A DNA stretch of 64,000 nucleotides from contig CAVPGK010000017.1 of assembly GCA_963703955.1 (NCBI GenBank), positions 160,001 to 224,000 of the forward strand, read 5' to 3'. Below, piece after piece: positions 35,755-54,730 of the stretch (position 1 is its first letter; each line of letters begins with the position of its first letter). The position numbers and the translations under genes were made by a program. The DNA is from Nitrospirota bacterium. GTDB lineage: Bacteria > Nitrospirota > Nitrospiria > Nitrospirales > Nitrospiraceae. A model generated the notes under the pieces. The model saw nothing but the letters and a program-made list of their open reading frames with translations, made no database searches and was not told the DNA's origin.

Positions 35755-36528
35755 TTACATGAACTTCATGAATTTGTCTTTCGCCTCGTCCATGACTTCG
35801 GCGGTGATGGTGGTGGCGCCCCGCTCCTTTGCCAGGCGTTCGATTTCCCGGCGCGCCATGGGTCGGATAAAGTCCGGGATATTCTCCAGGCGCTTTTCTG
35901 CGTCCGATGACCACGCGATGCCGTTCGAGTCATTCTTCGAGTCATCCATGACCTGCAGATTGATCGTGTTAAACCCATGCTTGCGGGCATAGGCTTCGAC
36001 ACTGCTCTGCACCATGGGTTTGACGAATGAAGGGAGCCGATCCAATTTTTCCTTGGCGTCCGGAGACCACGTAAATTCCGGTCCTCCGGAGCCGCTATGG
36101 CCGGCCTGGCTTCCGGAGGTAAGGCCCATTTGTGCCACCATCGCGGAGAAGGGGCAGCCTCCTCCGGACTTCTCGCCCTCCTTGCCCTGGACGGAGCCTG
36201 CGGGTGTAGAAGTTTTGGTTCCGGTCTGTGCGACCGGTTGTCCTCCCTGAATTTTCTGGTTCAGATACGCCGCCATTTGTCCCGAGCCGGCTTGCGCCTC
36301 TTCTTTGAGCGTGCCCCGAGTCATCTCAAACGGTTCAGCCGGCGCCGTGCGACCACCGAGCTGCACCCCCAGCGAACTCACCATTTGGGTCTCTCCCGGG
36401 TTGGTCACCATTGAGAACTTGGCTCCGCAGGAGGGACAGCCGAAGAAGACTCCGAGGGAACCTTCCGCCGGCTTTTCGACTTTTTCGAAGTTCATGTACG
36501 TTTCGCAGTTGAGGCAAACGAATTTCAT
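35755..36528 (-). CDS. Zn-ribbon plus two PCP_red-like domains protein
   Basis: N-terminal CLNC/CPSC; GGCPF; two WSxDAxxxLxxxPxFxxPM repeats. Confidence 0.8.
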   Translation of the reverse strand: MKFVCLNCETYMNFEKVEKPAEGSLGVFFGCPSCGAKFSMVTNPGETQMVSSLGVQLGGRTAPAEPFEMTRGTLKEEAQAGSGQMAAYLNQKIQGGQPVAQTGTKTSTPAGSVQGKEGEKSGGGCPFSAMVAQMGLTSGSQAGHSGSGGPEFTWSPDAKEKLDRLPSFVKPMVQSSVEAYARKHGFNTINLQVMDDSKNDSNGIAWSSDAEKRLENIPDFIRPMARREIERLAKERGATTITAEVMDEAKDKFMKFM

Positions 36529-36552: not shown

Positions 36553-37473
36553 TCAGAGTTTCTCGGCGAGAACCTTTTTGTAGTCTAGGATCGACCGGAC
36601 CCGCTCTGCAATCTCCTGATACCGCTGGATCGTGGGATAAGTCTCATCCAAGAGGGGCGTCCCCTTGTCGAAGGTGCGCGCGAGTAAGCGGTCGAAGGGG
36701 ATGCGTCCCAGAAGCGGCACGTCTAAAGCCGCGCACATGGCCTCGGTATTTCCTTCGAACAGGTCGCTCTCGGCTCCGCAGGAGGGACATCGGTACTGGC
36801 TCATGTTTTCGACCATACCCAAAACCCGGATGCCCATGTCCCGCGCATAGGTCACTGACTTCTGCACGACATCGGAGGCCACTTCGGATGGAGTCGTGAC
36901 GACAATGGCACCGGCCAAGTCCGGAATAAATCCCGCCATGACCGGAGGCTTATCGGCTGCAGCTCCGGGCGGAAGGTCGGTGAGAAGATAATCCAGCTCT
37001 CCCCAGATCACATCCGATAGAAATTCCCGGATGACGTTCATTTCCATCAGCCCAAGCCAGACCGGGCTCAAATCCATAGGCCCTTTCCATCGAACCGGCG
37101 AGGCCGCATCAAGGAAGAAATCCATCGAGCCAACCTTGACGCCCAAAGGCCCAACGGGTGGGAGAGCGCCCTCAGGGGTCATGGTGAGTGTCTGTCCAGT
37201 CATCCCCAGCATGCGAGGGACGCAGGGTCCGTTCAAGTCCACGTCCAGCAAGCCGACCCGTGCGCCTTGGCGGGCGAGGGCCAGGGCCAAATTCACGGTG
37301 GTCATGCTCTTGCCGACGCCACCCTTTCCACTCATGACGACGAGCTTGTGCTGAATGCCGGCCATGCGGGCCTGCACCTGCCGCATCTGGTCAGTGATCT
37401 GCTGGACCACCTTCGCATCGTCGGCGTACTGTAACTTGCTCAGGATCCCTTTGAGGTCTTTTTCAAGGGCCAT
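36553..37473 (-). CDS. mrp: Mrp/NBP35 (ApbC-like) Fe-S cluster carrier ATPase
   Basis: MSGKGGVGKS, DLPPG, VENMS, CPSC. Confidence 0.9.
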   Translation of the reverse strand: MALEKDLKGILSKLQYADDAKVVQQITDQMRQVQARMAGIQHKLVVMSGKGGVGKSMTTVNLALALARQGARVGLLDVDLNGPCVPRMLGMTGQTLTMTPEGALPPVGPLGVKVGSMDFFLDAASPVRWKGPMDLSPVWLGLMEMNVIREFLSDVIWGELDYLLTDLPPGAAADKPPVMAGFIPDLAGAIVVTTPSEVASDVVQKSVTYARDMGIRVLGMVENMSQYRCPSCGAESDLFEGNTEAMCAALDVPLLGRIPFDRLLARTFDKGTPLLDETYPTIQRYQEIAERVRSILDYKKVLAEKL

Positions 37474-37583
37474 GGACGGCCACCGTAGCATAAGGATTTC
37501 TCATGAGTCAAACCGGCAGGCTGCTGGTGGCCAGGGCGCGATAAATGCCTTTTTTAAGCAACCCGCACATCTATTGTCCCTCC

Positions 37584-39437
37584 TTAGATGGAATATTGAA
37601 ACCTTGGCTTCGCGCCGATGGTGCGCGCCAAGACCCCGCGCTCTTTGAGAGCTTCGATGATCTGACGGGCGGACGCATCGTAATCCTTGGGCCCGGCAAA
37701 ATGCAGGTCGGTGCTCGGCGGCGGTTCTTCGTCGGTCTTGCTCATGTGGACGGCAACCACAGGCGCGGGATGCACGAGTGTCCGAATAGACTGGGTGACC
37801 TCATGAGGCGGCAGCCCGAAGGGATTCGTAGTTGAGACGACGATCAATCCGGTGTCGACGAGGAGCCGCGCTACCTCGCCGTACCGACGAACCATTTCCA
37901 CCGCATCGCCCGCATCGGACTCTGCCAGGTCGGCATCAAGGCCGCGCCGGAGATTTTCCGCATCCAAGAGGTACGCGTGTCGTCCCTCCGCGACGAGGAG
38001 GGATTCCAGTTTTCTGGCAAGAAACGATTTGCCCGTATGCTGCCCACCGGTAACCAGGACGATGGCGGCGCGATGCCCATAGTTCTGGGCACGATCCTCC
38101 GCGCCGACTTCTCCTTTGACCCATGCAAAATCACGCCGACGGGCCTCGTCCCGTAGGAATGCCTGCTCGTCGTGAACCAATTCCGTGATAATGCCCCCAC
38201 CGGAAATATCGTACTGGTCCACAAGGACGAACCGCCCGGTCGTCTCGAACTGCTGGTACAGATCGAAGGTCAACGGGAACTTGGTGCGCAGAGTCAGGTC
38301 GGCGACCTCATTGCGGCCGACGACGGTCTTTGATTGGCGCTCGCCGAGATCCGCGGCGTCGATAATCCGATGGATCGCGGCAACCTCGCAATCCACTTCG
38401 CGGGTGGCCAGCCGAAGGAGGTATTTCCGGCCTCGCTCGAGCGGTCGTTGCCCCAACCAGAACAGGTTGACACGAAAAGCTGTTGAAACGAGAGGAAGAG
38501 CCTCTCGATGGGAGGCGATCTCGCCCCGCTCGATAAATATCTGTTCATCCAACGTGATGCCGATGGATTGCCCGGCGTGGGCATCGGTCGGCGGCGGCTC
38601 GATGTTAAACGCTTCCACGGACTTCACGTTGGCGGACTTGTTGGACGGCGAGAAGACGACGCGATCACCGACTTTCAATCGTCCTGCGGTGATTCGGCCG
38701 ACGATGATTCGGCGGGCGTCGAATTTGTACACGTCCTGAATGGGAAATCGAAGCGGCTGTTCCGACCGAGCGGTCTCTTTCCTAAACAACTCCAACGTCT
38801 CCAGAACCGTCGGACCGTGGTACCACGTCATCTGCTGGCTGCGCAGGGCGATGTTGTCGCCGAGTTTGGCGCTGACGGGAACGACCCGTTCCGGCGCGAC
38901 ATTGAGCTGGGCGAGAAACTCGCGGTATTCCTTTTCGATTCCCTCGAAGACATCCTGACGATAACCGACGAGATCCATCTTGTTGACGACCACCGCCACC
39001 TGTTTGACGCCGAGCAGGGACAAGAGATAGCCGTGTTTCTTGGACTGCTCCTTGACTCCTTCGAGCGCATCGATCAGCAATAACGCCGCCTCAGCCCGCG
39101 CGGCGCCCGAGATCATATTCTTGAGAAACTCCTTGTGCCCTGGCGCGTCGATAATGATGTACTGCCGGGTGTTCCAGGTAAAAAACGTGCGAGCGGTGTC
39201 GATCGTGATGCCCTGCTCCTGCTCCTCAAGAAACGCATCGAACAGGAAGGCATACTCAAACTCCTTGCCCTGCTGGCGACAGATCGCCTGAACCTTTTCC
39301 AGCTTACCTTCCGGAAGAGAGCCGGTGTCGGCGTAGAGCCGGCCGAGCAACGTTGACTTGCCGTGGTCCACATGGCCGACGATGACGATATTCAAATGTT
39401 CGGTCGGTTTGATGACCGCAGTGGCCGTCGGTACCAT
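37584..39437 (-). CDS. cysN: Sulfate adenylyltransferase subunit 1 fused to a degenerate APS-kinase-like domain
   Basis: [28 protein letters not shown]-terminal TGGQHTGKS...[11 protein letters not shown]. Confidence 0.9.
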
Positions 39438-39440
39438 CGC

Positions 39441-40238
39441 CTACATGTACCCATCTTTTCTCAGTAGTTCCATCCCACGCCCTTCGTCTTGCGCTCGCCC
39501 TGAACGTTCGCTCACCGTAGTATGACGAAGTTCCTCGATGATGTCGTCGACGGTCTTAGCGGTGGACCGAATGGGAAACGTACAGGGGGCGCACCCCAAG
39601 CTCCGATAGCGTGTTCCGTCACCCTTGTCGAGGTAGAGATCGATGAACGGGATGTTTTCCAGCTTGATGTATTCCCAAATGTTGATCTCCGTCCAGTCCA
39701 GCAGGGGATGAATACGGATATGGGTTTCCTCCGGGAAGGTGGTCTTGAACTGATCCCAGAGCTCCGGCGGCTGATCCCTGAAATCCCAGTCCCCATGTTT
39801 GTCGCGTGGCGAGAAATACCGCTCCTTTGCCCGCGTGCCTTCCTCATCCGCCCGCACCCCCAGAATGACCCCTGTGTACCCCTTTTCAGCCAGAAGGTTC
39901 TTGAGGCCGTTGGTCTTGAGGGCCGTACAACACGTCACGCGTCCCAACGTATGGTTCATTCCGGCCGCAAGCGCCTCCTTGTTCTGCCCGATCACCAGAT
40001 TGAGTCTCCATTCACGCGCAAGCCGATCGCGGTATTCGATCATCGCTGGGATCTTGTAGCTGGTATCGACATGGAGGAGCGGAAAGGGGACATGCCCGAA
40101 GAAGGCTTTGCGTGCCAGCCAGAGCAACACGGTCGAATCCTTGCCCATGGACCATAGCATGGCCAGGTGATCGAAATGCTTGTAGGCTTCACGGAGAACA
40201 TAGACGCTCTGATCTTCCAATTGCCGAAGGTGCTTCAC
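39441..40238 (-). CDS. cysD: Sulfate adenylyltransferase subunit 2
   Basis: [29 protein letters not shown] 40238 after AAGGAG. Confidence 0.94.
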
Positions 40239-40248
40239 GCAAGGCTCC

Positions 40249-41316
40249 TTACGGGCACGATTCCTTGTCACCGTGAGCGACTCCGACCGGTATTGGCGGG
40301 ACGGCGAGGGTGGTCAGCTTGTTCGCCGCGGCTCCCGACTCAATGGCCTGGAGCGCCATCGGCACGGCGGCTGAGATGGAAGGCGCAAGCCCGGCAGCAT
40401 ACAGCAACATGGCGGCGTTCTGTACCACCCAATCGCGGTGAGGACCGCGGATTTCATTGCGCAGAATCCGCCTCAGCAGCGCGGCCTCCTGATCCGTGTG
40501 GGGGCCGGGGAAGCCAGCCATGTCGCGGAAGGAGCCCAACGCCAAGCCGATGTCTTTCGGCTGAAGATTCAGCGGAAGAACGCGCTCGTTTCTCATCTCC
40601 AGCACCTTCGTGATGGCCGCGATCGACAGCTCGGGGTCCCCTTCAACGCCGCGCACAATCAGCGCGCGCCGGGACCCGAGCATGTTCAGCGCTTCAGCCA
40701 TCTTTTCAAAGTAAGGCGGGTGAGTCAGGCCGATGACCTGGACCGGGGCGCGAGCGGGATTCAACATCTTGGCAACCGGATGAAAGAAACTTCGCACGCC
40801 GAGTTCCTGGCGCAGGTCCAAAAAACGAGAGAGTGGAGGATGATATAGGGCTATGTCCAAATAGCCGAATCCTTTGGCGGACACTTCCTCAGCCGCTTGT
40901 TTGGGGGTGAGATCAATAGAAATTCCCAATTGAGCCAACACCGCAGCGGTGCTGGTTCGTTCAGGAATGCCGTCATAGCCGTGCATGAGGACAGCTGCGC
41001 CCGCGGACGCCGCGACGATGGCGGCGCCCGTCAGGGCGTGGAACGTATCCTGTTTACCCGCGTAGGTCGGCAGATCGACCAGATGCGGCGTGTCAGATAT
41101 CCGCAGAGGCGCGACGTATTCACGAGCCGCGGACGTGAAGGCGGCAAGCTCGCTCACCGATTCCATCTTGATCCGCATGGCGAGGAGAAATCCGCCGACC
41201 TGAACCGGAGTGGCTTTCCCCTCGATGAGCAGCCGCATGGCCTGCTTGGCCTCATCCCAGGTGAGGTCCTTCCACGCCTTCTGGCCTTTACCTATTTTCG
41301 CAATGAACTGTTGCAT
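40249..41316 (-). CDS. Anthranilate phosphoribosyltransferase-like protein (YbiB/CnaT type)
   Basis: IGKGQK...[37 protein letters not shown]; lacks the TrpD GTGGD motif. Confidence 0.82.
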
Positions 41317-41727
41317 CAGAATGTCAGCACCCGGTCGGCCTTGGCGATTTCTTCCTTCCAGAAGGCCTCGGCCTTCTGCACTTCGTCGAGCTCCGGGATC
41401 AATTGATCGACGCGAGGGTCGAAATAGTCCAACGAGTCTCGACACACGGAGAATTTGACATCACCCTTCTCTTTGAGCTCGCGAAGAACGGCCGGGAAAT
41501 CGTTCAGTTTCCGCTCACGCAACATGTCTCGGACTTTTGCTGCGTCCTCGATAGGCATCACCGAACGTCAATTCCTTCGCTTTGTCGAACGTTAACTTGG
41601 CGGCTGCTTCGTCCCGGAAGAAAAAACTCACCTGAGTTCCTGTTTCAGCCGCGACGCGGGCCAATTGACAGGCCTGTAGCAGGTTGTTGTAGGCGCCTCG
41701 AGTCACGATGATCGCAAGCTTTTTCAT
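41316..41727 (-). CDS. DsrE/DsrF-like sulfur-relay protein, frameshifted at ~41541
   Basis: MKKLAIIVT...VSFFF joined to ...KFSVCRDSL...ADRVLTF; two ORF-track halves. Confidence 0.75.
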
Positions 41728-41749
41728 TCTCCCAACCCAATGGCTAACA

Positions 41750-41841
41750 AGCGATCAGCGTACAGCCATCAGCCGACAGATTAAGATTGAGAAAATATTC
41801 CTTTGCAGAAGCTGGTCACTGACGGCTGACCGCTGATGGCT
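41750..41841. repeat. Inverted heptamer repeats (GCCATCA-like / GCTGACG-like)
   Basis: GCGATCA GCGTACA GCCATCA GCCGACA ... ACTGACG GCTGACC GCTGATG. Confidence 0.6.
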
Positions 41842-42570
41842 TTATCTGTGCAGTCCACATTCGGTTTTATCGAAGTTGTTCCACCGGCCTGAGCGCGGAT
41901 CCTCCCCCGGCATCACCGGCGCGGTGCAATGGGTGCACCCGATGCTGGGGTAGTTGCGGTCATGAAGGGGGTTGTAAGGAACCTCATGGATCCGGATGTA
42001 AGCCCACACGTCTGTAGCGGTCCATTTCGCCAGTGGATTGAACTTCACGAGCTGAAATTTCTTGTCCCACTCGATCAGTCCGGCATGGGCCCGAGTAGGA
42101 GCTTGGTCCCGCCGGATCCCGGTAATCCATGCCGAGTAGCCGCTGAGGATTCGGCCCAGCGGTTCCACTTTTCGTAACTCACAGCATCGATCCGGATCTC
42201 GCGTCCAGAGCGCCTCCCCATACTGGGCGGCCTGCTGTTCCGGCGTCAGTTGTGATTTCACCTGAATGACCTGGTTCGGCAAGAATCCATACTTCTCAAT
42301 CAGACGGTCCCGCACCTCATGAGTTTCCTTGAACAGAAAGTCCGTATCCAAATAGAACAGCGGAACGCGCGGATTGATCCGGTGGATCATATCGACCAGC
42401 ACGACGTCCTCGGCGCCGAAACTGCATGCAAACACAATGTGAGGGAAGTACCGCTCGAGGGCATAGGCTAGCACGTCCTGCGGATGCTTGGACTCAAAAG
42501 ACTCGCTGAGCGCTTTCAGCGATTCTTGAGTAGGCCGTGCTGTTATTCCGACACTCTCTTCCACCGTCAC
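41842..42570 (-). CDS. cysH: Adenylyl-sulfate (APS) reductase, Fe-S type
   Basis: SFGAED, LDTDFLF, CCELRKVEPL, SIGCTHC, KTECGLH. Confidence 0.93.
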   Translation of the reverse strand: MTVEESVGITARPTQESLKALSESFESKHPQDVLAYALERYFPHIVFACSFGAEDVVLVDMIHRINPRVPLFYLDTDFLFKETHEVRDRLIEKYGFLPNQVIQVKSQLTPEQQAAQYGEALWTRDPDRCCELRKVEPLGRILSGYSAWITGIRRDQAPTRAHAGLIEWDKKFQLVKFNPLAKWTATDVWAYIRIHEVPYNPLHDRNYPSIGCTHCTAPVMPGEDPRSGRWNNFDKTECGLHR

Positions 42571-42576
42571 TCCTGA

Positions 42577-45075
42577 CTAGCCTTCAACTTTCTCCACCAG
42601 CACTTTGAAATGAGCGGCCTCCGGTTCCAACGGTTCCTCTGTAAGGATCTTGTGCCCGTCGTTGCGAAGGCTCATGGGTACGTTCTTGATCGGTTCGCCG
42701 GCATCCAACCACACTTCGAGCCGCTCACCTGCGTCCATCATTTCCAACTTGAGTTTTGTCTTCACGTAATTGAGCGGACACGCGACACCCCGGAGATCGT
42801 ACACAAGCGCAGCGCCTGCTTCTGAGGCAGGGCGTGCCGGTTGTTGGGGCGCCGCCGCTTGCGGGTGATCGACCTCAGGCGCGCTGTCGGTCTTCAGCTT
42901 CAAATCTTTCCCCATCTGCTCTGTCGCCGCCTTGCAGACCTCGACGAACCCTCGCGCGAACGTGATCTTGGCCCGCGCGAACTCCGGCGTCGTCTCCTTC
43001 GGTCCGAGATCGCCGATCTGCGACGCCAGCCCCCGATATGAGGCCGGCACCACATTTCTCAATGCGAAGCGTCGCTCAAACTCTGCGAAGGTGTCCGCAT
43101 CTGTCGCCGGATCGATGCCCTCCGTCACCAAGAGAGCCTTGGCAGCGGCCAGGACCGCGCGGTAGGCCTTATTGACCGAAACCGAGTACTGGTGCTTGTC
43201 CGCTAGGAGACGGGCTTGATAGAGTTCTTGTTCCGCTTCTAGAATGCGATTGTCGATCATTTCCAGGGCTCCGCCGGCGCATTCACCCGGACCAAGATCT
43301 TCGAGGATAAACTCCTCCTCACCCTCCCAATCGTAGTAATACGTCGAATCTTCTTCAAAGGACGGGATGATCGTATAGGGGATCAATTCGTCCTTGAGCC
43401 TGGCCTTGCCTGTTCTGGCGATGAAGGTCTGAAGGGTTTCGTCGTTCCGGCGATCGCGCCGGTAGACCATGAGCAGATGTGAAATCGCCGCTGGCACATT
43501 TTTCGCCGGGAGCTTCACGGTCATCTGACCGATCTGGGCTGTCCCGTTTACACGGCCGCCGAGGTGCAGCTCGTAGTGGGGCGCAAAATGCTCGCCCACG
43601 CGTTTGCCCACGCCATGCAAACCAATGGTCGCGATGTGGTGTTGGGCACACGAGTTGTGGCACCCGCTGATCTTGACACTGACGCCCTTCAGGTCTTCCG
43701 GTACCCGGCCGGGAGGAAAGATCTCGGCCATTGCGCGCGCAAGCCCCTTCGAAGAGGTAATACCGAGACCACAGGTGTCGGTCCCTGGACAGGCGATAAT
43801 ATCTTCAACCAGCTCTGCCCCCGGATCGGCCAACCCCATCGAAGCCAGATCGTCGTAGAGATCTTCCAAGCGAGACTCGGGCACCCATCGTAGAATCAGA
43901 TTCTGATTAATCGTTGTGCGAAGGTTGCCATTGGAGTACGTCTCCGCCAAATCCGCCACGAGGTTCATCTGCGACGACGTGATGTCCCCCATTTGTAGCT
44001 TGATGATGGCGGCCGCGTAACCGGCCTGTTTTTGGCTCATCACATTAGTCCGTTTCCACCTGTGATAGGGAGTCTCGTGCAAGGTGCCGTTTCCGTTACC
44101 ATCCCCATTGGGACCCGATGAACCAGACCGCCCCTGATTCGCTGTCGGCATGATCAGCGGCACAGGGTCGTCCTGATGTGGTAGCAATTTGATGGGGGCG
44201 TGGTCGGGGCGGGCATAGCCCATCGTGACGTAGGTTTCCTCCCAGCGTCGTTTGAACTCATCAAAGCCCAGCTTATCAATCACAAACTTCATCCGAGCCT
44301 TGTTGCGGTTCTTGCGGTTCCCGAGCGTGTCGAAGACTTTGATCACGGCCTCAATGGATGGGATGAGCTCGTTCATCGGGACGAACTCTCGGAGGACCTT
44401 CGCGATGCGAGGGGCCGAGCCTAAGCCACCGCCGACGGCCATTCGAAAGCCGATGGTTCCGTCGTCACGTTGTGCCGCCAATAGCCCAATGTCGTGGATC
44501 GGCGTGAGGGCGCAATCGTGGCGGCAGCCTGAAAAGGCGATTTTGAATTTTCTCGGCAGGCTCTGGTTGAGAGGATTGCGGAGGAGATGCAACGCGACCG
44601 TCTTGGCATAGGGGGTGACGTCGAACACCTCGCCCTGGCAGATTCCGGCCAAATGGCATGCCGTGACATTGCGAACCGTGTTAGCGCAGGCTTCGCGGGT
44701 TGTGACTCCCACCTCAGCCAGTCGTCGCATGATGGTACCTACGTTTCTGAGTAAGACGAAATGAAGCTGAATATCCTGGCGGGTGGTAACATGGCCGACT
44801 CCGGTCGCATAGGTATCGGCTATTTCGGCGATCCGACGCAATTGGTTGGCTGTGAGCCCGCCAAACGGGATTTTGATACGCACCATCTGAACGCCCGGCT
44901 GGCGCTGTCCATAAATCCCGTATTGCAAGCGAAAGGGCTTGAACAGATCAGTGGAAAGATCGCCGGCAGTGACCCGCCGGACTTCTCCTTCGAACGTTTC
45001 AATCTCTTCTATAATCGCAGGGGGAATGGGGATCGTCTTGATTTCACTGGTGCGAGTCGTCCTGACCGACCTCAT
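42577..45075 (-). CDS. Siroheme sulfite/nitrite reductase fused to HEPN-like and TusA domains
   Basis: TTRQDIQLH, LPRKFK, CPGTDTC, GCHNSC; helical NKAYRAVLAAAKALL; C-terminal DLRGVACPLNYVKTKL. Confidence 0.88.
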   Translation of the reverse strand: MRSVRTTRTSEIKTIPIPPAIIEEIETFEGEVRRVTAGDLSTDLFKPFRLQYGIYGQRQPGVQMVRIKIPFGGLTANQLRRIAEIADTYATGVGHVTTRQDIQLHFVLLRNVGTIMRRLAEVGVTTREACANTVRNVTACHLAGICQGEVFDVTPYAKTVALHLLRNPLNQSLPRKFKIAFSGCRHDCALTPIHDIGLLAAQRDDGTIGFRMAVGGGLGSAPRIAKVLREFVPMNELIPSIEAVIKVFDTLGNRKNRNKARMKFVIDKLGFDEFKRRWEETYVTMGYARPDHAPIKLLPHQDDPVPLIMPTANQGRSGSSGPNGDGNGNGTLHETPYHRWKRTNVMSQKQAGYAAAIIKLQMGDITSSQMNLVADLAETYSNGNLRTTINQNLILRWVPESRLEDLYDDLASMGLADPGAELVEDIIACPGTDTCGLGITSSKGLARAMAEIFPPGRVPEDLKGVSVKISGCHNSCAQHHIATIGLHGVGKRVGEHFAPHYELHLGGRVNGTAQIGQMTVKLPAKNVPAAISHLLMVYRRDRRNDETLQTFIARTGKARLKDELIPYTIIPSFEEDSTYYYDWEGEEEFILEDLGPGECAGGALEMIDNRILEAEQELYQARLLADKHQYSVSVNKAYRAVLAAAKALLVTEGIDPATDADTFAEFERRFALRNVVPASYRGLASQIGDLGPKETTPEFARAKITFARGFVEVCKAATEQMGKDLKLKTDSAPEVDHPQAAAPQQPARPASEAGAALVYDLRGVACPLNYVKTKLKLEMMDAGERLEVWLDAGEPIKNVPMSLRNDGHKILTEEPLEPEAAHFKVLVEKVEG

Positions 45076-45130
45076 GTCATCCTCTTTCGTGAGCAATCGT
45101 GACACAGAAGTCACGCTGCTGAACTCGGGC

Positions 45131-45583
45131 CTAGATGTGATACATCAAGGCCCGCTCTTGTTCGAGTTGTTGATGTCGCTCTGCCAATTCCTTCAAGGTC
45201 ACGGCGCTGAGTACCCCCAGCTCTGCTTGTCGGACCTGCTCCCACACACCCCCTAAGAGTCTGTCGGGCTTCGTCCGTTCCCGGGTCCGTCGGGCGCTGG
45301 TGGCATGCACCGGCTTCATCGTCAGCGACCCATCTAATGCTTCGACGATTTCAGCCAGGGAAATCTCCTGCGGAAACTTGCTGAGCAAATAGCCGCCTTG
45401 CGCTCCGCGCAGGCTATCCACAAGCCCTGCTTTTTTCATAGCCAGCAAGACTTGCTCAAGAAACCGGATAGGAATAGCTTGGCGTTTCGCGATAGCTTTG
45501 GACTGGATCGGGGTTCCTCCATTGCTGAGGGCCAAGTCCAGGGCAGCCAGGATACCGTACGTGGCTTTGAGTGAAACCTTCAT
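45131..45583 (-). CDS. Rrf2 family regulator (CymR-like, no Cys ligands)
   Basis: IPIRFLEQVL, VDSLRGAQGGY, ISLAEIVEALDG. Confidence 0.92.
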   Translation of the reverse strand: MKVSLKATYGILAALDLALSNGGTPIQSKAIAKRQAIPIRFLEQVLLAMKKAGLVDSLRGAQGGYLLSKFPQEISLAEIVEALDGSLTMKPVHATSARRTRERTKPDRLLGGVWEQVRQAELGVLSAVTLKELAERHQQLEQERALMYHI

Positions 45584-45593
45584 CTATTTCGAG

Positions 45594-45652
45594 TATTCCG
45601 ATAGGGAATAAAATGACATCTGAGGATACTTGTTAGTATGTGTGTCTGTCAA
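45594..45652 (-). promoter_or_regulatory. cys operon promoter with downstream palindromic operator
   Basis: TTGACA-N18-TATCCT; TATTCC-N5-GGAATA at 45594-45610. Confidence 0.55.
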
Positions 45653-50616: not shown

Positions 50617-52332
50617 CTATTGCTCAAGGAGTCGGTTCACTGCAAACTCGAAAGCGACGCACGGCATCGCCACCTGCCATTGTTCCAACACTTCCGGGTG
50701 TAACTCGCCGATCACGCCGAGGGGCCGGCCGTCACACAGGATGCGGCCGGCTCGCCCGTCCAGGAACGAGGGATGGGCGAGGGGTTCCAATTCATACAGG
50801 TGTCCCAGATAATGGAAGAGGAGATCCAGGCACGAGTGGACCTCTGAAAAATTTGCCGTCGCGTGCGCAAGCAACACCCCTGCCGACATCACCGTCCGTC
50901 CGCCGAGTTCATGCGTGAGATCCGGAATCACGACCTCCCCCACCTCAAAAAGCCGATGAGGGTAAAAGGCTCGCGTGGAGACTGATTCAATGCGCAGCAA
51001 GGAGGGAAGGATGCCTTGCCTGAGGCAGGCGAAGTTCTGAGACATGACATTATCCACCTCGACCACCCGTTCCCACTCGGTCCCCGGGAGACGCATACGG
51101 TCGACCAGATCAGAGCGAGAGGTGAGGATATTGGAGATCACCTCCTGAAATCCCATTCCGATCAAGAGATCTCTGATGCGATCTGAGACCTGCTCCAGCC
51201 TCGACAGCCCGCCGACGGTAAATTCTGATGGCATGACGGGAACAAAGTCCCCGTATCCCCGGCTGATGGCGACATCCTCCACGACATCCATGGCATGCAT
51301 GACATCGTTTCGATAGGGTGGGAGTTTCACGGTGACCATCTCGCGGGCAAGGGCGACCTCATATCCATAGGTCAGCAAGGCCTGGCGGATCTGATCCGAC
51401 GCCAACGGCTGTCCTAAAGCCGATTCGATCGTCTTCATCGAGATGGTTCGGGACTTTCCGAAGTCGACTGGAGTACGAATCGCGGTCCCGAGGTCGGTCT
51501 GATACGGGTAGACCACCTCGATCGTCTCGATCGACGCCCCCCGGTCCGCCAGATTTACCGCGAGAATATTGAGCGTGAGTAGGACCATGGGCAGGTCCGT
51601 TCCGGTGACCTCCACGAAGAGTTCTCGATCGCCCACTCGGACTTCCCCGATTTCCCGGCTGTTGATAATCGGTGGGAGCGACAGCACCTGACCCTCGTCA
51701 TCCATCAAGAGCGGGACACGTTCATGACCGGCCAAAATGGGTCCGTACTCCAGCCCCTTGGGGTGCACGGACAATATTTCGCGCAAGGACATCTTTTCGT
51801 CGAATCCCAGCGGGGTAAACCGCGCGTCATCGGGCTTCACGAGCGCATAGGTGACGGGGAAGGCGATGGACGGGAGGCGGTACAGACCGATTGAGACCGT
51901 GCGACGCTGCCGTCCAAAAACCTCCGCCAACTTTTCTTGGCCTTGGATGAGCTGCGTCAACCCCGCTTCATTCACTTCATAGCCGACCGCCGAGCAAGCC
52001 GCGACATAGGGCCTGACGCTCTCCAATCCCGGAGAGACAATAAGCCGCCGAGTGGGACGACTCCTTGCATGAAAGAAGGGGTATGGTGACGGGGCGCCCG
52101 TTAACTTGGTGCGGATCTGTCGGGCGATGCCTTCGCAGGACCAGAGATCCGGACGATTGCTGTCCTGCAATTCCACGCGTAACTCATCTGTCTCCTGCTC
52201 ATGATCCTTCAGCTCGCCTTTCACCCAGCACAGCCAGGACTCAATCACCTCAGAAGTCATAGGTTCGGCCGTCGTCGAGCGTTGACCAAGGAGCTGCTCA
52301 AAATCTTTCCGATTAATCGAAATGGTCGGCAT
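50617..52332 (-). CDS. pheT: Phenylalanine--tRNA ligase beta subunit, archaeal/eukaryote-type (short)
   Basis: MPTISI, NRPDLWSCEGIAR, VRPYV, SLPPIINS, DVVEDVAI; 571 aa with no OB-fold or FDX-ACB. Confidence 0.9.
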   Translation of the reverse strand: MPTISINRKDFEQLLGQRSTTAEPMTSEVIESWLCWVKGELKDHEQETDELRVELQDSNRPDLWSCEGIARQIRTKLTGAPSPYPFFHARSRPTRRLIVSPGLESVRPYVAACSAVGYEVNEAGLTQLIQGQEKLAEVFGRQRRTVSIGLYRLPSIAFPVTYALVKPDDARFTPLGFDEKMSLREILSVHPKGLEYGPILAGHERVPLLMDDEGQVLSLPPIINSREIGEVRVGDRELFVEVTGTDLPMVLLTLNILAVNLADRGASIETIEVVYPYQTDLGTAIRTPVDFGKSRTISMKTIESALGQPLASDQIRQALLTYGYEVALAREMVTVKLPPYRNDVMHAMDVVEDVAISRGYGDFVPVMPSEFTVGGLSRLEQVSDRIRDLLIGMGFQEVISNILTSRSDLVDRMRLPGTEWERVVEVDNVMSQNFACLRQGILPSLLRIESVSTRAFYPHRLFEVGEVVIPDLTHELGGRTVMSAGVLLAHATANFSEVHSCLDLLFHYLGHLYELEPLAHPSFLDGRAGRILCDGRPLGVIGELHPEVLEQWQVAMPCVAFEFAVNRLLEQ

Positions 52333-52341
52333 TGTCTCTTA

Positions 52342-52424
52342 GAGTTCTGAGTTCTGAGTTCTGAGGCGTAAGCGAAGACGATCGTTGTTCGACTCTTGAA
52401 TTTGAACTCAGAACTTAGAACTTC
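52342..52424. repeat. Inverted heptamer repeats between pheS and pheT
   Basis: (GAGTTCT)x3 at 52342-52362 and GAACTCA GAACTTA GAACTTC at 52404-52424. Confidence 0.7.
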
Positions 52425-52430
52425 CTGGAA

Positions 52431-54005
52431 TTAGAAGCGCCCGCGCATGGTGCGAATCAACTCCAGATCGCTCGAAAACAGATCGCGGATGTCATGAATC
52501 TCCAGGGCAACCATAGCCATGCGGTCCAGCCCCAATCCCCATGCAATCACCGGAACCTCCACGCCGAGCGGCACGGTGACTTCCTGTCTGAATAAGCCCG
52601 CCCCGCCTAGCTCCATCCAGCCCAAGCGGGGATGCCGGACATGCAGCTCGACCGACGGTTCGGTGAACGGGAAATACGCCGGTAAAAACCGACTTTCTTT
52701 GGATTGGGCAACCTCGCGGGCAAAGAGATCGAGCAATCCCAGCAAGGTTCTAAAGTTAATGTCGGGACCTAGCACGATCCCCTCGACCTGAAAGAAATCG
52801 GTGGCGTGGGTTGCGTCCACTTGGTCGTAGCGAAAGCACCGCGCGATCGAAAAATACTTGCCCGGAATCTGCGGCCCTGAGGCCAAGGTGCGGGCTGACA
52901 CGGCCGTCCCCTGGCTGCGGAGGACCAAACGCTTCGCGCGCTCGCGATCGTAGGTGTATCCCCAGCCGGTGGACCCGGTCTTTCCTCCGTTCTGATGAGT
53001 GTCGGCCACCCTAGACAGAAATGGCTCAGGCGTCTCTCGCGCGTGGGTCGGCTCTTTCACAAAATACACATCATGGATGGCCCTGGCCGGATGGAACTGC
53101 GGCATGTAGAGGCTATCCATATTCCAGAACTCAGTCTCGATCAGCGACCCTCGCATTTCTTGGAAGCCCATACTGACCAACTTGTGCTTCACGAGATCAA
53201 GGAACTCGCGATAGGCATGGCGTCTCCCGATGGCAATACGGGGCGGGCGGAGGCTAATGGTGTATTTGCGAAACCGCTTGGTGCGCCAGGCTCCATCTTT
53301 GAGCAGCTCGGGAGTGAGCTGCGAGACCTCTTCTCCTGCGGTATCTTTTAGAAGACCCTGCGCCACCGTGCCCGCCGCTGTGAGGATATAGGACCGCTCC
53401 GGCCGTTCATCGATGCGGAACGGTTCACGAGGGTTCCCTCGTTTGACGGCATACTGTTTGATGACATCCTGCTGGGCCGGGGAGAAAGAGGCAAGATTTT
53501 TCTTTCTACCGTGGAGCCCAATTAACAGGTTGCGGAGCTCCTTACAGGTTGGACTGTCAGAACCGGTCAGTTCCAAGTATCCGCCAGGTACGACCCGGAC
53601 CGCTCCCTCTTTTTTCAACAATCCGATGGCCGCGCTCACCTCAGGTGGTTCCAGCCCTTCACGGGATTGAATATCCTTGATCGTGAGGCGTTTCCCTGAC
53701 TGTTCCGCCTCCTTCAACGAGGAGAAGATCCGTTCAATCGGCGCATACTTTTCAAAGTAGATCTCGCCGATCTCTGTGAGCGAGACGAGGGCAGTCGCGG
53801 ATTCTTCATGAACGCGAACGAGCCCCTTTGAGAGCAACCATCCGAGGGCCATACTGATCTGTGAGGGCTCAAGTGAGGTGGCCTGGCCGAGATCTTCTTC
53901 TCCCATGGCTGCCGAGGCAGAATCGGCTTGGTGGTCGCCGAGCGTGGAGAGCACTTTGATTTCCAGCGGATGCAGGCTGTCGATCAGGGTGGTAGGATCT
54001 TGCAT
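52431..54005 (-). CDS. pheS: Phenylalanine--tRNA ligase alpha subunit, archaeal/eukaryote-type (long N-terminus)
   Basis: FWNMDSLYMPQFHPAR, DATHATDFFQVEG, PAYFPFTEPS, AWGLGLDR, HDIRDLF. Confidence 0.92.
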   Translation of the reverse strand: MQDPTTLIDSLHPLEIKVLSTLGDHQADSASAAMGEEDLGQATSLEPSQISMALGWLLSKGLVRVHEESATALVSLTEIGEIYFEKYAPIERIFSSLKEAEQSGKRLTIKDIQSREGLEPPEVSAAIGLLKKEGAVRVVPGGYLELTGSDSPTCKELRNLLIGLHGRKKNLASFSPAQQDVIKQYAVKRGNPREPFRIDERPERSYILTAAGTVAQGLLKDTAGEEVSQLTPELLKDGAWRTKRFRKYTISLRPPRIAIGRRHAYREFLDLVKHKLVSMGFQEMRGSLIETEFWNMDSLYMPQFHPARAIHDVYFVKEPTHARETPEPFLSRVADTHQNGGKTGSTGWGYTYDRERAKRLVLRSQGTAVSARTLASGPQIPGKYFSIARCFRYDQVDATHATDFFQVEGIVLGPDINFRTLLGLLDLFAREVAQSKESRFLPAYFPFTEPSVELHVRHPRLGWMELGGAGLFRQEVTVPLGVEVPVIAWGLGLDRMAMVALEIHDIRDLFSSDLELIRTMRGRF

Positions 54006-54027
54006 GCTTACGGCTAACGGCGCCTCG

Positions 54028-54730
54028 TCACGTGGATTCGACCGGCTTCGCCTTATGCGTTCGCTGCGCGGCCTGCCGCATGGCAGTGATCGTCGCACGG
54101 TAGTCTTGGGTGGTGAAGATAGCAGACCCGGCCACTAGAATATCAGCGCCGGCCTCGATAATTCGTCCAGCATTGTCCACTTTCACACCTCCGTCTACCT
54201 CCAAAACGGCATGGCTGCGTGAGCGGTCGAGAATCTGGCGCGCGCGCATGATTTTTCCGAGGGTCGAGGGGATGAACTGCTGGCCGCCGAAGCCGGGACT
54301 TACGGACATGATAAGGAGAAGGTCCACATCTTCAATGATTTCCTCAATGGCGGTCAACGAGGTGGCGGGGTTCAGCGTCACCCCGGCCTTGACCCCGTGT
54401 TCCTTGATCGCCTGAATGGTCCGATGCAGATGCGGACACGTCTCCACGTGGACGGTCAGATAATCCGCCCCTGCCTCGGCAAATTCCGGAATAAACGCAT
54501 CGGGGTTGGTAATCATGAGATGCACGTCCAAGGGCAACTTCGTGACTTTTCGTAGTGCTTCGACAATAGGGGGCCCCGACCGTGAGATTTGGCACGAAAT
54601 GGCCGTCCATCACGTCGATGTGCAACAGATCGGCGCCTCCCTTTTCCACACAGGCGACCTCTTCGGCAAGCCGCGCAAAATCCGCTGAAAGAATTGACGG
54701 CGCAATCCGAACGTCTGCGCGGGCCATCAC
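54028..54730 (-). CDS. rpe: Ribulose-phosphate 3-epimerase, split by an extra G at ~54575
   Basis: [24 protein letters not shown] | [22 protein letters not shown]. Confidence 0.9.

Follow-up and report, generated by a model that had tools for sequence, protein, structure and literature searches.

A siroheme sulfite reductase that carries a sulfur-carrier domain on its own chain raises the question of whether its sulfur leaves as free sulfide or bound to protein. Such an enzyme is encoded in a stretch of 64,000 nucleotides from a Nitrospirota bacterium (assembly GCA_963703955.1, contig CAVPGK010000017.1, positions 160,001-224,000, forward strand), referred to here as the window; labels such as C15, G020, L073 and f2 are our own for contigs, genomes, loci and families. 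The locus is a sulfate-assimilation operon of a Nitrospira-type bacterium. It runs on the minus strand throughout, co-oriented and in the order given by the initial annotation of the sequence: rrf2, sulfite reductase-HEPN-TusA fusion, cysH, dsrE-like gene, trpD-like gene, cysD and cysN, followed by mrp and a PCP_red gene, and the gene names were backed by Pfam and NCBIfam profile searches. The partial coupling of stops and starts described there was also found, the reductase gene and cysH being 6 nt apart and cysD and cysN 3 nt, while the ATG of the trpD-like gene overlaps the TGA of dsrE. The cluster had been said to contain no cysteine synthase or serine acetyltransferase, and indeed no cysK or cysE lies within the 30-54 kb part of the window; both are on other contigs of the genome.

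The general view is that assimilatory sulfite reductases let their sulfide go free, and that only the dissimilatory enzymes pass sulfur to a carrier protein. We tentatively favour the view that in this adenosine 5'-phosphosulfate (APS)-type assimilation operon the reductase hands sulfur to Cys599, on an arm of its own chain, then to Cys766 of the fused TusA domain and then to ThiS/MoaD-type carriers encoded elsewhere, dsrE being a broken accessory. The new part is the arm; the fusion itself has already been catalogued.

Reductase core

The reductase gene (42577-45075, minus strand) matches Pfam NIR_SIR and NIR_SIR_ferr, two stretches each, together with HEPN and TusA, and encodes 832 amino acids from the ATG at 45075 or 845 from a GTG at 45114. 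Along the chain come the core (about residues 1-575), the arm, the HEPN-like helices, a linker and the TusA domain. Named close homologues are from Nitrospiraceae or Nitrospirota. The best matches of the core in the PDB are ferredoxin-type siroheme reductases (Mycobacterium NirA/SirA, 1zj8; plant nitrite and sulfite reductases, NiR and SiR). These assimilatory enzymes have the same two-fold core, second-half CX5C..CX3C motif and distal Arg/Lys set, and 1zj8 also has the EAC motif and a Tyr in common with the reductase described here. However, they have no counterpart of the arm, the HEPN domain or TusA, and the four first-half cysteines of the present enzyme are missing from the aligned solved ones. 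The curated models for NirA, CysI and sir all score it below their cut-offs. Since a separate NirA-like gene is present on contig C4 of the same genome, and given the operon context, the fusion is taken to act on sulfite; the class is marked by a six-electron reduction that sets HS- free, and this activity is putative in the present enzyme.

The CX5C..CX3C motif occurs in both halves (C140/C146/C184/C188 and C429/C435/C472/C476). The siroheme-cluster ligands of the second half, C429, C435, C472 and C476, were kept in 66/66 arm-bearing loci. In the alignment with 1zj8 the first-half cysteines fall on that enzyme's second-half cluster ligands; they were invariant in 34 close homologues and were absent from the aligned solved reductases. 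Each was kept in 50-66 of the 66 arm-bearing loci, depending on position, and of 40 distant representatives only about 16, by an eye count, had all four together. Passages of PMC10229431 describe assimilatory sulfite reductases as having lost the first-half cluster site and DsrAB as retaining a structural one; in the present reductase the first-half motif has not been lost. A second Fe-S cluster in the first half is predicted.

The cysteine arm

Between the core and the HEPN-like domain lies a segment, recognised by its conservation, with the pattern D582-W-x5-F-x7-G-E-C599 (43273-43332, minus strand; F589, G597 and E598, with the Cys codon at 43279-43281). Across homologues it takes the form D-x14-16-GEC, and it was invariant in 34 of 34 close homologues. 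It had not been picked out in the initial annotation, and it is the best conserved of the additions to the core. A phmmer search against representatives at 50% identity gave 404 hits at E 0.001, of which the best 150 were examined. Cys599 was present in 135 of the 139 rows covering the position and TusA Cys766 in 75 of 78; in the 40 full-length rows the arm Cys was kept in all 40, and a TusA domain was present in 34. As the query of this search contained the arm, a second, arm-free-seeded test was needed. A genome scan with a distant fusion, using six seed peptides all outside the arm, gave 78 loci from the best 80 of 86 matches. The arm was present in 71 of these 78 named loci (six lacked it and in one it was cut off), a seed-biased sample rich in Acidobacteriota whose proportions are not natural frequencies.

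The 71 arm-bearing chains end in different ways. The Cys is third from the C-terminus in 48 and fourth in one, 11 continue into helices and another 11 into helices and TusA. Chains that end at the arm come from Acidobacteriota, Dehalococcoidia, Omnitrophota, Thermaceae, Planctomycetales and others, the shortest being about 580 amino acids long and ending GEC-x-x, and the extension by helices and TusA is from Nitrospirae, Aquificales and Pirellulales. As many homologues end at the arm and fewer extend into helices or into helices and TusA, the comparison suggests that the arm arose first and that HEPN and TusA were appended later. A split form also occurs, in which an arm-HEPN reductase is followed immediately by a free tusA (L153).

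A set of 300 genomes drawn evenly from the phylum included 115 of the same class, and the arm profile matched all 115. The arm matched no Pfam family and no solved structure. A search for it among longer proteins returned mostly Nitrospira, giving more names and no wider range, and the ESM Atlas gave solely HEPN-type clusters for the region, at <0.8, which serves as a lead only. A covariation test on 300 sequences reached an effective depth of 54-86 and was set aside; the set was picked by motif, which makes its list of conserved arm positions circular. A literature search that did not reach most subscription papers found no paper that deals with the arm or with how the fusion works biochemically. 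The 2019 TusA review by Tanabe may describe this fusion. The arm reductases are an unstudied variant of sulfite reductase.

HEPN-like and TusA domains

The HEPN-like helical domain (42910-43257, minus strand) and the C-terminal TusA domain (42589-42801, minus strand) had both been proposed at the outset and were borne out by Pfam, with 25.5 bits for PF05168 (cut-off 22) and 55.7 bits for PF01206 (cut-off 28.6). The consensus motif of TusA is CPxP. Here it reads C766-P-L-N (Cys codon 42778-42780), as first annotated, and CPxN rather than CPxP is usual in this group: Asn was found in 76 of 78 distant representatives, the Cys was kept in 39 of 39 relatives' loci within the motif CP[LMI]N, and a free TusA paralogue on contig C15 likewise has CPYN. 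The putative function of the domain is to carry a persulfide. The free paralogue (L071 8698-8976; G000:C15:159697-159975) is 53% identical to the fused domain and lies upstream of ccsA/ccsB and of tetrapyrrole genes that include the uroporphyrinogen methyltransferase required for siroheme (hemA, hemC and hemB were named by eye).

In alignments of close and distant homologues the Rx4-6H nuclease motif was not found in the HEPN domain and no His was conserved. Passages of Anantharaman et al. 2013 (PMC3710099) describe a motif-less HEPN family (HEPN-T, Cpin_6617) that in Bacteroidetes and Nitrospirae is joined to a dyad of ferredoxin domains. That entry, which in those passages names no sulfite reductase, arm, TusA or function, most likely is this architecture, as both have a motif-less HEPN on a ferredoxin-domain dyad.

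The fusion was found in 40 of 41 order-level genomes, in 36 of them as one piece, and it is already in public annotation across the order. Public record P0312 is titled 'putative Sulfite reductase, contains SirA-like domain (Modular protein)', and many such proteins go by the name 'TusA family' or 'HEPN domain'. In other Nitrospiria the fusion sits in rrf2-aprA-aprB-SiR-sat operons (L073 6298-12560, L150, L152, L157 and L158), in which dissimilatory-type enzymes are apparently used for assimilation.

Route of the sulfur

For free sulfide to form a persulfide on a thiol a two-electron oxidation is required. Free sulfide therefore cannot persulfidate an unoxidised thiol, and capture would have to occur before full reduction or by way of a disulfide. 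Electrons would be supplied by ferredoxin, since the operon has no flavoprotein gene. The arm would reach the siroheme, where Cys599 would take partly reduced sulfur; alternatively, sulfide would open a Cys599-Cys766 disulfide to give a persulfide or trisulfide, as with DsrC on DsrAB. The nuclease-dead HEPN domain would act as a spacer, and Cys599 would hand its sulfur to TusA Cys766, which would pass sulfane sulfur onward. DsrC carries sulfur on the penultimate Cys of a flexible C-terminus (passages of PMC3397948) and takes a partly reduced sulfur intermediate from DsrAB (passages of PMC10229431). The present reductase resembles the DsrAB and DsrC pair in having one catalytic and possibly one structural cluster site and a near-terminal Cys on a Gly-rich tail. 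It differs in being a single chain, in an assimilatory operon and with the assimilatory arginine, and its arm is non-homologous, with one Cys to the two of DsrC; the likeness of the arm to DsrC appears to be positional only. With the TusA Cys conserved as it is, the idea that sulfur leaves the reductase protein-bound is reasonable.

The most plausible acceptors would be the ThiS/MoaD-type carriers of a cluster on contig C11, which comprises thiS, cysK, E1, a thrC-like pyridoxal phosphate enzyme, moaD, a second E1 and JAB (L070 1408-6831; G000:C11:103907-109330). Both E1 proteins are short and have no rhodanese domain, and JAB is present in 39 of 41 relatives. A second thrC is on C6, and the thrC-like enzyme of C11 may use a thiocarboxylate to form a sulfur-containing amino acid. 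E1, MoaD and CysK genes stand beside arm reductases in L086, L104 and L140, and E1 and cysK flank the fusion in L134. Passages of Iyer 2006 (PMC1779556) report that sulfur-assimilation neighbourhoods with a rhodanese-less E1, ThiS/MoaD, JAB and sulfite reductase always have SirA (TusA), report ThiS fused to sulfite reductase, and propose transfer to ThiS/MoaD proteins. With these neighbourhoods (row 4e), and with the thiocarboxylate pathway that Krishnamoorthy and Begley reportedly described in Wolinella in 2011, the present genome shares a sulfite reductase, SirA/TusA and a rhodanese-less E1, and the same proposed flow to a ubiquitin-like carrier. The difference is that here TusA is fused and ThiS/MoaD, E1 and JAB are not in the neighbourhood of the reductase but on C11, without an operator; the row 4e arrangement was found in part in L086, L104, L140 and L134.

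Several observations weigh against this route. The assimilatory distal residues R58, R135, K176 and K178 were kept in 63-66 of 66 arm-bearing homologues, and the same arginine is tied in passages of PMC10229431 to full six-electron reduction with release of HS-. The arm showed no sequence similarity to DsrC in the Pfam and PDB searches. Most arm-terminal reductases among the 78 named loci have no tusA or carrier gene nearby. A free-sulfide route is available, cysE being present in 37 of 41 genomes and cysK being canonical and above its cut-off. No regulon link could be seen joining the C11 cluster to the operon, the operator described below having no strong copy upstream of that cluster. The protein-bound and free-sulfide routes may run side by side.

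The retained active-site residues and the presence of cysE and cysK would also suit an assimilatory reductase of the ordinary kind, which completes the six-electron reduction and supplies CysK with HS-. The arm Cys would then be a structural residue, metal ligand or redox gate, and TusA a secondary addition serving cofactor pathways. In the alignment with 1zj8, Y55 and C130 fall on the crosslinked Cys-Tyr pair of that enzyme, and 60 of the 71 arm-bearing named loci have no fused TusA. This account, the main rival, is nevertheless somewhat unlikely. Acidobacteriota, Chloroflexota, Omnitrophota, Planctomycetota and other groups all hold a Gly-flanked Cys at the third position from the C-terminus, which is not how a structural residue behaves, and the arm is unmatched in any solved reductase. 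Furthermore, the arm Cys is present both in homologues with an intact first-half cysteine motif and in those without, so that it is unlikely to be a ligand of the first-half site.

The terminal Cys of DsrC also binds sulfite (passages of PMC3397948), and the arm could be imagined on the input side, bringing to the siroheme either sulfite, taken over as an S-sulfonate when the C-terminal Cys of CysH passes it on, or sulfane sulfur donated by TusA. In keeping with this, cysH directly follows the reductase gene in 38 of 39 relatives' loci, the remaining one ending at a contig edge, and CysH ends in an ECG tail of its own. However, AprAB releases free sulfite, and in L072-L078, L150, L152, L157 and L158, which have aprAB and sat in place of cysH and cysDN, both the arm and TusA are still present. 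This retention weakens an input role tied to CysH, and as many arm-terminal loci have no cysH nearby an input role is improbable.

The dsrE gene

A DsrE-like gene with a conserved Cys had been annotated, together with a proposed relay from TusA through DsrE to Fe-S or cofactor synthesis, Mrp lying directly downstream. The Cys is indeed kept in 11 of 11 intact orthologues, and an intact orthologue scores 34.9 bits against Pfam PF02635 (cut-off 22.7), but the gene in the window is a pseudogene (41316-41727, minus strand). It is split between two frames, a 70-codon piece at 41515-41727 and a piece in the other frame at 41316-41561 which holds the cysteine, and both match Pfam DsrE in register, at profile positions 1-46 and 56-116. 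Comparison with four intact orthologues, which carry 2 more bases than the window near 41541, places a 2-bp deletion there. The 2 extra bases are also present in a contig of sequencing run X2, from a roughly 96% relative. A contig of run X1, of 151 bases, is identical to 41499-41649, so that a near-identical strain has the short allele. An assembly error is disfavoured on the strength of this single X1 contig, which is of low depth (2.4) and possibly from the source sample. The gene is also frameshifted in G020, and in the X3 relative a deletion of 259 bases inside dsrE includes the Cys codon. Programmed frameshifting was rejected, since sister lineages delete or lose the gene. The gap between cysH and dsrE (41745-41841) is filled with short GCTGA-type repeats, and the X3 relative lacks 81 bases of this gap.

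Among the 39 relatives' loci, dsrE lies between cysH and the trpD-like gene in 10 (nine intact, one broken), cysH abuts the trpD-like gene in 18, other orders are found in nine and two loci end too early. Two genomes that group with that of the window on a quick reductase tree (support 99) have no dsrE between cysH and the trpD-like gene. In the phylum survey an orthologue of dsrE (threshold E 1e-15) was found in 16 of the 115 same-class genomes and not found in 99, and 14 of the 16 were within about 3 kb of the arm. In three families the gene is a neighbour of the fusion, and this holds in L150 too, where aprAB/sat stand in for cysH/cysDN. No operon-type dsrE or trpD-like gene was found near the 78 distant reductase loci, 64 of which have at least 3 kb downstream, apart from weak DsrE-like matches in L074 and L075, some 8.5 kb upstream; as a control, both profiles recovered their targets in the genome of the window. 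Since its Cys is kept and it adjoins the fusion in three families, but it is often lost, dsrE is an old accessory, repeatedly lost, a partner that is genuine yet dispensable. Two more DsrE-like genes (G000:C6:115763-116182 and 121484-122344), one of them next to a third tusA, lie among histidine-utilisation-like genes.

The TusA-DsrEFH-DsrC relay and the TusA-TusBCD-TusE relay of E. coli (passages of PMC3397948) also combine TusA with the DsrE family and its conserved Cys, whereas here dsrE is single, broken and mostly lost and the operon has no DsrF/H or DsrC gene. DsrE as a required step in this strain is refuted by the broken gene, unless full-length DsrE is made. Thus the proposed relay survives in part: protein-bound exit is reasonable and the cysteines of TusA and DsrE are both conserved in orthologues, but dsrE is not co-conserved with the operon. 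Onward passage of the TusA persulfide through the operon DsrE to Mrp and to Fe-S or cofactor synthesis, although consistent with the conserved DsrE Cys, with the 14 orthologues close to the arm and with the tusA-dsrE adjacency common in sulfur oxidisers (passages of PMC10839748), is very improbable and is not the core route, since dsrE carries a frameshift both in the window and in G020, has lost part of its length in the X3 relative, is missing from its place in the two closest genomes of the tree and was found in 16 of 115 genomes as against 115 of 115 for the arm, and mrp is absent from 11 of 32 loci.

Other genes of the operon and regulation

CysH (41842-42570, minus strand; Pfam PAPS_reduct) is of the Fe-S, APS reductase type. 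It scored 238.5 with TIGR02055 (cut-off 235.3) and below the cut-off of TIGR02057, and has the motifs CC..CxxC and a C-terminal ECGLH. CysN (37584-39437, minus strand; Pfam GTP_EFTU and APS_kinase) has a C-terminal APS-kinase-like domain (37584-38100) whose P-loop is degenerate and variable among relatives; this tail is probably inactive but kept. As CysH is of the Fe-S APS type and the kinase tail of CysN is degenerate, the pathway most likely runs from sulfate to APS to sulfite, judging from what is known of the families. CysD (39441-40238, minus strand; 265 amino acids; Pfam PAPS_reduct, NCBIfam) has CC and CxxC motifs like those of Fe-S type CysH and may bind a cluster.

The TrpD-like gene (40249-41316, minus strand; Pfam Glycos_transf_3) was present in 36 of 37 order-level loci reaching beyond cysH, and in one of the aprAB operons (L157) it comes after the reductase. 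Canonical TrpD proteins have a Gly-rich DxxGTGGD motif and KHGN. The operon protein has DLPTYAGKQ and MHGY, and a canonical-looking trpD on C10 has DTCGTGGD and KHGNRS. Like the TrpD2 proteins (YbiB; cyanobacterial CnaT, which is also TrpD-like), the operon copy has the TrpD fold and is accompanied by a canonical trpD elsewhere in the genome. It scores above the cut-off of the trpD domain model TIGR01245 (224.3, cut-off 199.05) and below those of YbiB (160.7, cut-off 185), PRK09071 (182.7, cut-off 257) and PRK07394 (145.9, cut-off 287). TrpD2 (YbiB) is defined in passages of PMC10123104 by DNA binding without TrpD activity, and the operon protein is probably of this type. The gene cnaT lies in a nitrate-assimilation cluster (passages of PMC9430850); by analogy, one might guess that the TrpD-like protein is a helper for siroheme enzymes.

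The Mrp/ApbC Fe-S carrier gene (36553-37491, minus strand; Pfam ParA/NUBPL) is directly downstream here, as had been reported. However, mrp follows cysN in only 21 of 32 loci with downstream sequence and in 0 of 6 in family f2, being a neighbour in f1 and f3 only, and Mrp may more simply supply clusters to the sulfite reductase and CysH. The gene directly after it (35755-36528, minus strand; Pfam) encodes a CxxC motif and two PCP_red domains and always accompanies mrp. Several further PCP_red proteins are present in the genome, as is a second mrp-like gene (G000:C15:50574-51468), whose match spans two adjacent open reading frames (ORFs) and which is possibly frameshifted.

The Rrf2-family regulator (45131-45583, minus strand; Pfam Rrf2) has no cysteines; its best NCBIfam subfamily is CymR, below its cut-off. 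A sigma-70-type promoter-like site, TTGACA-18-TATCCT, lies at 45623-45652 on the minus strand, the TTGACA box being where the initial annotation ended (45652), and TTGACA is similarly placed upstream of rrf2 in relatives. Between promoter and gene is an imperfect palindrome, TATTCC-N5-GGAATA (45594-45610), a candidate Rrf2 operator. Its consensus, ATTCCTATCGGAAT, was found by pattern in 33 of 35 upstream regions; of the two misses, one region is cut off and one has a one-base variant, and in G013 the pattern hit stands beside the visible site. In the genome of the window the palindrome is unique (31.6 bits, against 19.1 for the next site). Autoregulation by a cysteine-free Rrf2 bound at this operator is likely. 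In two RNA runs <0.1 of the sequence words were present.

Some differences in layout were seen among relatives. Four ORFs, one of them nuclease-like, lie between rrf2 and the reductase in G040 (L046 506-2647), and in family f4, whose loci have no cysDN, a cytidylyltransferase-like gene lies between cysH and the trpD-like gene (L055 6390-6896, L069 2373-2879). Elsewhere in the window, phenylalanyl-tRNA synthetase genes at 50617-54098 look archaeal by size, as judged by eye (alpha about 520-555 amino acids, beta 571), and face thrS-infC-rpmI-rplT on the opposite strand.

Implications

It is possible, if rather doubtful, that the arm reductases form a widespread class of assimilatory sulfite reductase with a DsrC-like arm of their own, by which sulfur would come off the siroheme bound to the protein, as a persulfide or trisulfide, without ever being free sulfide, and that HEPN and TusA were later additions to the arm. 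The single chain of Nitrospira, with its second cluster site and two tethered cysteines, would then mirror DsrAB and DsrC. The annotation of proteins now called 'TusA family' or 'HEPN domain' is corrected to sulfite reductase. If the arm does work in this way, the division between assimilatory and dissimilatory enzymes would not hold for a sizeable group of bacteria from soil, groundwater and wastewater, apparently including all Nitrospiria, and the aerobic nitrifying Nitrospiria may gain by keeping sulfide off their metal enzymes.

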